Source: Escherichia phage P1
Direction: 5' to 3' (one strand)
Length of the DNA: 64,000 bases
Sequence record: AF234173.1
This document shows positions 16,401 to 21,031 of this stretch, piece by piece. The position numbers and the translations under genes are program-made. The notes under the pieces were generated by a model. The model saw only the letters and a program-made list of their open reading frames with translations. It did no database searches and was not told the origin of the DNA. Numbering within the stretch: the first letter of the stretch is position 1; each line of letters begins with the position of its first letter.

Positions 16401-17236
16401 ATCTCTGCCGGATGTTTGCGCATCAGCACCACATCAACGACTGTACTGGTCCCGTTTGCGTCAAAAGTACCGGTAGGCAAGCGGTGAGCGCCAAGAAATT
16501 CAGCTTTACGGGATAAGCGCAGGCGTAACCGCTTCATGTTTGAACCTGAAACAATGGACGGCGGCACAATCACACACATGAATCCGCCAGGTTTTATCTT
16601 GTCCAGCATGCGGAGCATGAAGTAAGACCCCATGTCCGTTTCTTCTGCGTAAGGCTTATCGATGTTGCGTGTGTTATCACGACCGCCGAACGGAACGTTA
16701 CCCACAACATGGTCGAATGAATCGTTAGGCGTGCTTACAGCCAGTTGTTCGAACGGGGAAATCTGTACGCTGTCTTCCGGATGTAACAGCTGGTTTATAC
16801 GACCGGAAACACTGCTGATCTCAGTCGCGGTCATCACCGTACCAACCGGTTTTGTCTCATTAAAAACGCCGGTGCCCGCCGATGGTTCCAGAGTGTTACC
16901 TACGTCCGCGCCGTAGAGCTTCATGATCTCCCAGACACCTTCAGCGATCGGCTTTGGTGTGTAATATTCGGAGACGGACCCGCCAATGCCGCCTTCACCG
17001 GTGTACCCAGCCAGGATCTGGCGCTGTTCATCTGTCAGTGTCGCGCCGTCCACCAGCGAATTAAGCAAATCTATCGCCTTCTGATTCGCCTCCCGGCGCA
17101 GTCGGTCATAGCTTTTGCCTTCCACCTTTTCCACGCCGTATTTAATCGGCGCTCGGTGAGATGTTATTGCCCTAATGTATTTCAATATTTCGCTGACACT
17201 TGAACAGCGAAACACCCCCATAGATAGCTTGTTCAT
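10469..17236 (-). CDS. darB: DarB antirestriction protein: giant methyltransferase-helicase fusion
   Basis: 2255-aa ORF; SAM-binding-like motif LEPSAGTGVF and NVPFG near the N-terminus; Walker A GTGLGKT and DEGH box (VIADEGHNY) further in. Confidence 0.9.
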   Translation of the reverse strand: MNKLSMGVFRCSSVSEILKYIRAITSHRAPIKYGVEKVEGKSYDRLRREANQKAIDLLNSLVDGATLTDEQRQILAGYTGEGGIGGSVSEYYTPKPIAEGVWEIMKLYGADVGNTLEPSAGTGVFNETKPVGTVMTATEISSVSGRINQLLHPEDSVQISPFEQLAVSTPNDSFDHVVGNVPFGGRDNTRNIDKPYAEETDMGSYFMLRMLDKIKPGGFMCVIVPPSIVSGSNMKRLRLRLSRKAEFLGAHRLPTGTFDANGTSTVVDVVLMRKHPAEMAEKIPLVHESTLESANVLWPTFISGKWFEKDGRRFVHGTQEKGFQGRIEVRADGQIDNQALKAKLIHCFESRIDWYLLDMAEPSPTADVVDEGEMRLINGVWQKYAGGRWIESDAGKELKIDVASYGADSWEALQRNLTTTEGRLGMTFTQMANVRDKYTTSISDDMVQLVDWINSQPEKYRERLYRGAMIGRMLIEYQDMKAAGHSAEQIEQQRLSLVSRLQAEIDRFGNPGRGPIAKLSGSGARAWFAFRGAIKLDGTISDELTGKLVTHDSSASYDSTSYQDTLRYLYSDLTRDPIQLDDFRLAFTGELPASDDELLNLLASTPGIAVSPYGGIVPFARATSGDINEIVAPKQEFLATLTDGPVKNNVLNQLAAIEEKRIKTPAENIRFKLNSRWFDRSVILEFLQENGYPDLRYVQSVQLEGDEMVSDTYHGGDGLFVGHRYGVVQRKDKETGEIRYEWDRKSGENATGFPAQLEKYLNGARIGGKDSATANGYREQMALLEDQFNKWIKTHDRYDELVAKYNDVFNSNIPYEHSGDPLGLKGLSGKRQPFDYQNSEVRRLSEDGRGILGFGTGLGKTTTALALEAFNYENGRSTRTAYVVPKSVLENWYYEAKEFLSEEAFSNYLFVGLDVLMDGDQIRQVPVLDENGKPVLGTDGTPVMRDALKLADEATITARMNAIPHSNYRAVVFTKEQYARIPLRDDTVDEHAQDMLYDFVAAGRVASAMDSDSHRKEAARRRVLSEYSDTGTEKAEKYPYFEDMGFDSVIADEGHNYRNSYKNGREASQLAYLPTSAVAQSARDMAIKNAYLMKKNGGRGPVLLTATPVVNTPIDAYNMLSHVLPKEYWQKMGIYGPDDFVKFFGKTRLETVQKISGEVEEKMALVGFENLDALRGIFHRWTTLKTAEDVKDTVEIPELDEHQQDAPLTEEQLAAYEELRQQAEAAAKANNGVTTSVNEDGVIEHEKARPIFSIIRDMDRVCTDMDLYYRRITYRFLPEYADAVQQLADSLPKQATSEDDDSDDSITQQSQYSLIDKGEFIQLQVPEAFEQEVNKRLARFGIDEQTVTHPVTPKYAKLIATLKEFFPEGKQIIFTDEKTQHQKLKRIICNALNLEPSKVGILNAQTVAEAGKTGKKLKAVKPPKELPDEPTDAQIAKYNEQMALYDAYIAQQNEMSLGGLEKIAADFQEGRTPIIICNKKAEVGINLHRGTTDIHHLTLPWTPASIAQRNGRGARVGSNRASVRVHYYCGKGSFDEYRLKTLKRKAGWISDILRSDKSEMENADANDMIEMQMYTAKDDGERLAMMQVQMDKAKAAQRARQKEQATIDLQNYIKAQHAAGEDVEVLTAELERSKAELEKTTAEVAKFKQAVMAKAADNADWKARWGSVHHTDRMLLAQYRASLKSAIQRKANISQAISPYEKLLNRTQKAATDIKRLRPLVEDAINKGILDVDPDLVNHASEFLVIGDRSWRVGQYYDCAGDIVRIKSLDFDSQRADVEIIFTFKGTKSGNWDVKTLDKQVDVTPDEDAVMQKISGGVSIAGINDIISCDDFYRFQQRGMIKITDSYGVQTTESGYSIDFVGTYTDPLKHAVYPDRRDGALKSSIAKWVLGMMSEGNNRQVRLAEVFLTELFGSNYGDVIASYGDTLSPEAIQEKIADAIARMPEKTSQGATRNGDSELEVTNAIFGTHEFRASDYEITTAQFGTIGIYSNKAEIKQAMDAASARIAAEREANLNHAVAALTQSWVTAIREAATTGKITPAIADVVNDGSKFMDAYKMDAVQLPSAYGQLSYRMTYNLVSMFSDLAILGLVDLNEVTPELLSMRKNHVEILQRINTVLAGRTDEEKQADADRINLALGNITEEEIAARNEKQEELSSIQGDATSIAQSLGLNYRVSTADLKMMYAPKFAAGEVFGLQEASGMKGVLFRAKDAIKTKFGARWLPAKAKNSDFPGNWWIIETKHNVADVLAVIQQYA

Positions 17237-21014: not shown

Positions 21015-21031
21015 ATTGCTCTAATTAATTT
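21015..21031 (+). promoter_or_regulatory. C1 operator-like site ATTGCTCTAATTAATTT upstream of ssb (Op21)
   Basis: 16 of 17 match to the C1 operator consensus. Confidence 0.55.

Follow-up and report, generated by a model that had tools for sequence, protein, structure and literature searches.

Operator-like 17-mers, the one at positions 21015-21031 among them, recur through the window, by which we mean the whole stretch of 64,000 nucleotides that was analysed. This raises the question of which of them are known operators of a phage repressor, and whether any of them brings a further gene under that repressor's control. The 4-kb stretch around 21015-21031 is 100% identical to the P1 record AF234172 / NC_005856 with identical coordinates, and the window corresponds to P1 nt 1-64000. 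Annotations and former Op names are given here as they stand in the GenBank feature notes of that record.

The C1 operators of the window

The 17-mers of the window are the asymmetric operators of the P1 master repressor C1, which have long been known. The P1/P7 operators Op2a, Op2b, Op21, Op51, Op53, Op55, Op68, Op72ab, Op82, Op83, Op86ab, Op88, Op94 and Op99a-e were renamed Oref ... Oc1e in AF234172. Six window sites are these operators, in the same genome and with the same asymmetric 17-bp consensus. They are listed below, together with one operator from outside the window; scores are from a weight matrix trained on the 20 monovalent operators that are annotated across the complete P1 record.

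1962-1978, + strand: Oref (former Op1/Op2a), annotated C1 operator in the spacer of promoter P2ref; 20.7 bits
2628-2644, + strand: Omat (former Op2/Op2b), C1 operator upstream of Pmat; CATGCACTAATAAATAT, 20.2 bits
21015-21031, + strand: Ossb (former Op21), annotated C1 operator that adjoins the P2ssb -10 and overlaps P1ssb; 1 mismatch, 25.6 bits
48140-48156, + strand: Oc4 (former Op51), annotated C1 operator that overlaps the P2c4 -35; 1 mismatch, 25.5 bits
49810-49826, + strand: OrepL (former Op53), annotated C1 operator that overlaps the -10 of PkilA/P53; 1 mismatch, 23.7 bits
51575-51591, + strand: Orlf (former Op55), annotated monovalent C1-controlled operator; ATTGCTCTAATTATAAC, 17.4 bits
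94724-94740, outside the window: Oc1e/Op99e, through which the record proposes C1 control of cra/cre

According to the P1 record, Oc4 controls the immI operon c4-icd-ant and OrepL controls kilA-repL. In a lysogen, C1 on operators that overlap or adjoin sigma-70 promoters blocks RNA polymerase at the early and immunity operons, and these operons fire once C1 has lost its activity. In the record, Omat spans 2628-2645 (18 nt) and is assigned to the - strand; the consensus match, however, is on the + strand at 2628-2644, and the recorded strand is probably an annotation slip.

When the window was scanned with the consensus ATTGCTCTAATAAATTT, five matches with at most three mismatches were obtained, at 1962, 17166, 21015, 48140 and 49810. 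All of them are + strand matches, where 0.34 would be expected, and none of 100 shuffles reached five. Permitting five mismatches also recovered 1485-1501 (four mismatches) and 51575-51591 (five, all of them in the 3' half, which the initial annotation of this stretch had correctly described as divergent). With the weight matrix, the annotated P1 operators scored 14.5-27 bits, the exception being the degenerate half-site Oc1b with 6 bits, and the background elsewhere in the P1 genome reached a maximum of ~13 bits. The six annotated window operators have 1-5 mismatches and score 17.4-25.6 bits. Sites of at least 16 bits numbered 20, compared with ~0.43 per 94.8 kb in simulated genomes of matched dinucleotide statistics. 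The operator set as a whole is thus far beyond chance; a single weak site of 16-18 bits is, by its sequence alone, not significant.

That the 17-mers are C1 operators was the central claim of the initial annotation, and the record, in which Oref, Ossb, Oc4, OrepL and Orlf are all annotated as C1 sites, bears it out. The names that it gave, Op2, Op21, Op51 and Op53, agree with the record too (Op1/Op2a at 1962, Op21 at 21015, Op51 at 48140 and Op53 at 49810). It went astray in treating the 51575 site as unassignable, this being the annotated Orlf, and in placing 1485-1501 before cra, because the next gene is c8 and cra lies farther back. Its proposal that rlfAB and cra newly join the C1 regulon accordingly survives in part: control of rlfAB was already published and cra is the wrong gene, but the unannotated site at 1485 is backed by comparison, as a site for c8. 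The weight matrix likewise divided its weaker candidates, with 1485 (17.9 bits) and 51575 above the background and 1975-1991 at it. The six annotated window sites, five of which were on its list, are known biology, and the c8 site is the only item that is possibly new.

The P1 record holds 22 features described as 'phage repressor C1', six in the window and 16 outside it. As the operator count of the P1 genome paper is also 22, in the form in which it is quoted by PMC8546580, the window would appear to contain no further annotated operator. Literature full text searched for the C1 operator consensus, Op55, Op99e and Oc8/Pc8 contained no operator before c8; the P1 genome paper and the original operator papers fell outside this search and may already mention such a site or report that C1 does not bind it.

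The remaining candidate near ref had been put forward as a second ref operator, while the annotated Op2b, which is Omat, had been missed. It proved to be a promoter element.

1975-1991, + strand: extended -10 TGcTATAAT (1977-1985) of P2ref, with the -10 annotated in the record at 1980-1985; mimics the 5' half of an operator

Its matrix score of 10.4 bits is at background level. In relatives the element reads TTG[C/T/A]TATAAT, in which TG and TATAAT are fixed and the operator-specific C5 is free, a pattern that marks an extended -10 promoter element. We conclude that 1975-1991 is a P2ref promoter element and not an operator.

A candidate operator upstream of c8

The 1485 site and the features around it are as follows.

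207-428: cra, annotated gene
1394-1425: Pc8, annotated as predicted, 60 nt upstream of the c8 site
1485-1501, + strand: candidate operator 'Oc8', ATTGCTATAATTATTTG, 17-33 nt upstream of the c8 start
1487-1495, + strand: TGcTATAAT, an extended -10 read from the sequence inside the c8 site; proposed c8 promoter
1510-1514: GGTGA, proposed ribosome-binding site of c8
1518-1829: c8, annotated 'establishment of lysogeny, putative'

In P1 this site matches the consensus at 13 of 17 positions and scores 17.9 bits, above the annotated operators Orlf and Oc1c; when Oc1b is left out of the training, the score is 16.5-17 bits. The curated P1 and P7 records carry no C1 operator feature here, and Pfam gave no significant match for C8. 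Position 7 of the P1 site, which falls in the near-invariant operator core TGC.CTAAT, is A, where 19 of the 20 annotated P1 operators have C, and the only annotated operator with A7 is Oc1b, a very weak half-site. Since the C7 of these 19 operators has been lost, the P1 copy may not bind C1 any more.

Relatives of P1 present a different picture. In ~90% of the P1-like contigs the c8 site reads ATTGCTCTAAT..., a perfect operator core, and SJ46, 673R5, RCS47 and MH422554 all carry ATTGCTCTAAT... there; the C7 form of SJ46- and RCS47-type elements is ATTGCTCTAATTATTTG. An IMG/VR census, with an anchor in the c8 start region that excluded the operator core, returned 59 contigs, in which the perfect core was found 48 times, the P1/P7-type A7 seven times, G9 three times and T5 once. 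In a protein-anchored set the core was perfect in 75 of 80 loci, and the site lay at -33 from the c8 ATG in all 80. Salmonella phage SJ1 (OQ595196) was left out of the alignments, the cre-c8 intergenic sequence being apparently missing from its record. The record, 24.5 kb long, has abutting coding sequences for cre and c8 and lacks the operator site, and it resembles a concatenation of genes rather than a natural genome.

Nucleotide diversity (pi) was computed on 45 distinct haplotypes and took the following values.

c8-site core, positions 1-11: 0.008
c8 site, positions 12-17: 0.11
17 nt between the cre stop and the c8 site: 0.32
spacer plus ribosome-binding site: 0.08
cre third-codon positions: 0.06
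c8 third-codon positions: 0.14

The same placement was encountered in two distant relatives, in which the cre-c8 spacers are longer than that of P1 and otherwise unalignable. In Cronobacter phage JK004 (C8 identity 51%) the site is ATTGCTCTAATAATTTA, which scores 23.8 bits and lies 21-37 nt upstream of c8; in the S. arizonae plasmid CP053320 (C8 identity 50%) it is ATTGCTCTAATAATTTT, with 25.7 bits, 19-35 nt upstream of the gene. Other near-consensus sites at both loci indicate that their operator specificity is the same as that of P1. The 95th percentile of the best score in a whole random genome is ~19.9 bits, and extrapolation from random-genome scores puts the chance of a 24-26-bit match in an 80-nt spacer in the order of 4e-5. 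Taken over the diversity values, the 80 loci and the two distant relatives, the placement of the c8 site at the start of the gene is conserved beyond neutral expectation. The orthologous alleles of relatives, with their perfect core, score 18.4-25.7 bits.

Constraint on the c8 site is nevertheless not equal to that on its neighbours. At Oc1a, c, d, e, Oref, Omat and Olpa, position 7 never varies in the same contigs, and the Oref core ATTGCTCTAAT is invariant across all P1-like contigs compared, whereas variants that change the core of the c8 site occur in 11 of 59 contigs (A7, G9, T5) and are commoner than at the neighbouring operators, which suggests a weaker constraint.

From these comparisons we conclude that a C1 operator before c8 would be an ancestral and selected feature of the P1 family, with 1485-1501 as its P1 orthologue, and that c8 is probably a member of the C1 regulon family-wide. 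The site is one plausible unannotated addition to the C1 operator set, well supported in relatives and degenerate in P1.

A proposed c8 promoter and the A7 allele of P1 and P7

How such an operator could act is suggested by its overlap with a promoter-like sequence. In most relatives the core TGcTCTAAT can double as an extended -10, and C1 bound there would occlude the c8 promoter. This promoter would be independent of a -35, lie within the operator and start transcription near 1502; in P1 the c8 ATG follows the 1487-1495 element by 23 nt. No conserved -35 was found between cre and the c8 site in the 45 haplotypes, and independence of a -35 fits the hypervariable upstream flank. A simple sigma-70 scan reported no promoter at 1485; it demands a -35 match and is hence no test of extended -10 promoters.

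A precedent is provided by P53/Op53 (PkilA/OrepL), at which the annotated -10, TCTAAT, lies within OrepL and is preceded by TG, so that repressor and polymerase compete for the same bases. The c8 site of relatives has the P53 core TGcTCTAAT at a comparable distance from its gene. The likeness is incomplete, as P53 is a listed sigma-70 promoter with Dam sites in its -35, whereas the c8 promoter is a proposed one with a hypervariable upstream sequence.

Expression data are consistent with a promoter of this kind. In RNA-seq of P1vir infection, a data set without a repressed-lysogen comparison, c8 is early, with a logFC of 7.6 at 10 min and 8.7 at 30 min. It is thus near its maximum by 10 min, like cra, cre and ref, whereas late genes rise from ~3-5 to ~11. 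In a dksA host c8 goes up and cre goes down, and these opposite responses imply that c8 is not transcribed only by read-through from cre and has a promoter of its own.

P1 and P7 depart from the family at the base in which operator and promoter differ. The change from C7 to A converts TGcTCTAAT into TGcTATAAT, the consensus extended -10, and would in P1/P7 strengthen the c8 promoter while probably weakening the binding of C1. We infer from the altered bases that the A7 allele combines a stronger c8 promoter with weakened C1 control. The allele is derived, as is evident from the nearest P1 relatives, which show 0 differences in 400 positions of the cre 3' end and 1-3 in 312 positions of c8 and yet have C7, reading ATTGCTCTAATTCTTTG. 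A comparison of P1 with such relatives (e.g. L016, L043) revealed two substitutions inside the 17-mer, at positions 7 and 13, a clustering that points to selection on the site or to recombination of a short patch. In P7, whose c8 differs from that of P1 at 19 of 312 positions, the same A7 site adjoins a different upstream flank that is also known with C7. With two backgrounds carrying it, A7 has either originated on two occasions or been transferred within a short patch.

We rejected the possibility that A7 is an artefact of sequencing or strain, as it is common to the independent 1986 cre sequence X03453, OP279344, phi456 and the seven IMG/VR contigs. Within the 205-nt overlap with the genome record, X03453 differs solely at 1498 (operator position 14), where it has G instead of T; this G is probably an old sequencing error.

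Taken together, the known operators are re-read here and the c8 site is likely to be the P1 orthologue of a family-wide operator, 17-37 nt upstream of c8, at which C1 would occlude a promoter, the A7 of P1/P7 being a derived state with a stronger promoter and weaker C1 control. A more far-reaching form of this reading, in which c8 is in the C1 regulon family-wide and A7 is an operator-down/promoter-up allele that uncouples c8 from C1 partly or wholly in P1 and P7, with c8 regulation of the reference phage then atypical of natural P1-like plasmid prophages, is one that we hold only tentatively.

The uncoupling might also be complete in P1. The 1485 element would then be nothing but a constitutive extended -10 for c8, its operator inactivated by the C7-to-A change, and c8 would be outside the C1 regulon in P1 and inside it in most relatives. 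This falls a little short of an even chance. It draws on the C7 that is found not only in 19 of 20 annotated operators but in all neighbouring orthologous operators of the 59 contigs, on the perfect TGnTATAAT that A7 creates, and on the missing operator annotation at 1485 by the curators of both P1 and P7. Moreover, the first 13 bases of the P1 site, GATTGCTATAATT, are identical to the P2ref -10 sequence, which behaves purely as a promoter. The two elements nevertheless differ in how they vary: the P2ref -10 varies as TGnTATAAT beside a separate intact operator, whereas the c8 element varies as an operator, and its TATAAT form is, unlike the P2ref element, a minority state (7 of 59 genomes). 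The P1 site also still agrees with the family site at 16 of 17 positions and, with 16.5-17.9 bits depending on the training set, scores at or above Orlf and Oc1c. The co-repressor Lxc is reported to raise the affinity of C1 for its operators (PMC8546580) and could rescue a weak site, so that residual C1 binding to the P1 A7 site, perhaps aided by Lxc, may persist.

It is unlikely that the conserved element before c8 is a C1 site that serves mainly for looping with the Op99 cluster or Oref, or as a roadblock to read-through from cre. Looping partners are at hand, with Oc1e ~1.56 kb and Oref 477 bp away, the predicted Pc8 would put the site downstream of the Pc8 start, and the lack of a conserved -35 before the site would also be in keeping with such a role. 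The site is, however, fixed relative to the c8 start (at -33 in the close relatives and at -35 to -37 in the two distant ones), while the spacer to cre varies in length and sequence; this fixed distance ties the site to c8 expression and favours direct control.

Finally, a chance likeness in AT-rich promoter DNA, conserved only for promoter and ribosome-binding-site function, is very improbable, for although ~0.43 random sites of at least 16 bits are expected per genome and the operator 5' half can be mimicked by a -10 element, as at 1975-1991, the conserved ATTGCTCTAAT of relatives contains TCTAAT, in which the second -10 position is not the key A, the c8 site keeps the operator-specific ATTGC invariant, which the ref -10 does not, and the 24-26-bit matches recur at the same place in two distant genomes against the small chance per spacer given above.

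As c8 is among the least understood of the P1 lysogeny genes, a conserved C1 operator before it would be a concrete regulatory link. If direct control by C1 holds, one operon is added to the C1 regulon and c8 would be an early gene that is shut off as repressor accumulates, as expected of an establishment function. The regulatory allele of the reference strains P1 and P7 would then be a minority one (found in 7 of 59 related contigs), a caution for extrapolating P1 results to the hundreds of P1-like plasmids in clinical Enterobacteriaceae; a C8 homologue is encoded by 703 PLSDB plasmids. Most of the operator set is textbook P1 biology with nothing new in it, and its corrected remainder is of limited value.

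Operator-like sequence in darB and the region upstream of rlfA

The consensus scan also returned a match that the initial annotation had missed.

17166-17182, + strand: operator-like 17-mer ATTGCCCTAATGTATTT; 16.6 bits, within the range of annotated operators

It lies within the 5' end of the darB coding sequence, and the late promoter LPpro follows 85 bp downstream; the P1 record has no feature here. At position 6 it has a C that is seen in none of the annotated operators. Among 86 related contigs with this site, 12 carried variants nearer to the consensus, scoring up to 22.6 bits; judged from their coordinates, the common variants fall only at darB third-codon positions. Because the flanking darB coding sequence is itself ~99% conserved, no constraint on the 17-mer can be inferred.

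Orlf comes immediately after the stop codon of repL, with rlfA 165 nt downstream. Its census was taken by RlfA protein search, a DNA anchor at the repL 3' end having yielded only 7 contigs, and Orlf was intact in 14 of 15 rlfA-carrying P1-like contigs. These contigs have barely diverged, and the conservation of Orlf is therefore of little evidential value. At a threshold of at least 75% identity, rlfA was present in only ~17 P1-like IMG/VR contigs, compared with at least 59 for c8. RlfA matches Pfam DUF3800 with an E value of 3.5e-14 (rlfA and rlfB are at 51740-52908). A homologue of RlfA with 43% identity is found in ~60 unrelated viral contigs, mostly of 5-45 kb, with no C1-type operator nearby. 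A simple scan of 51500-51800 gave no terminator and no sigma-70 promoter. Between Orlf and the predicted PrlfA, at 51593-51660, two inverted repeats were noticed by eye, which read roughly CACCTCTAGTTTGCC...GGCAAACTCATAGGTG and GTGTCCTGG...AGGACAC.
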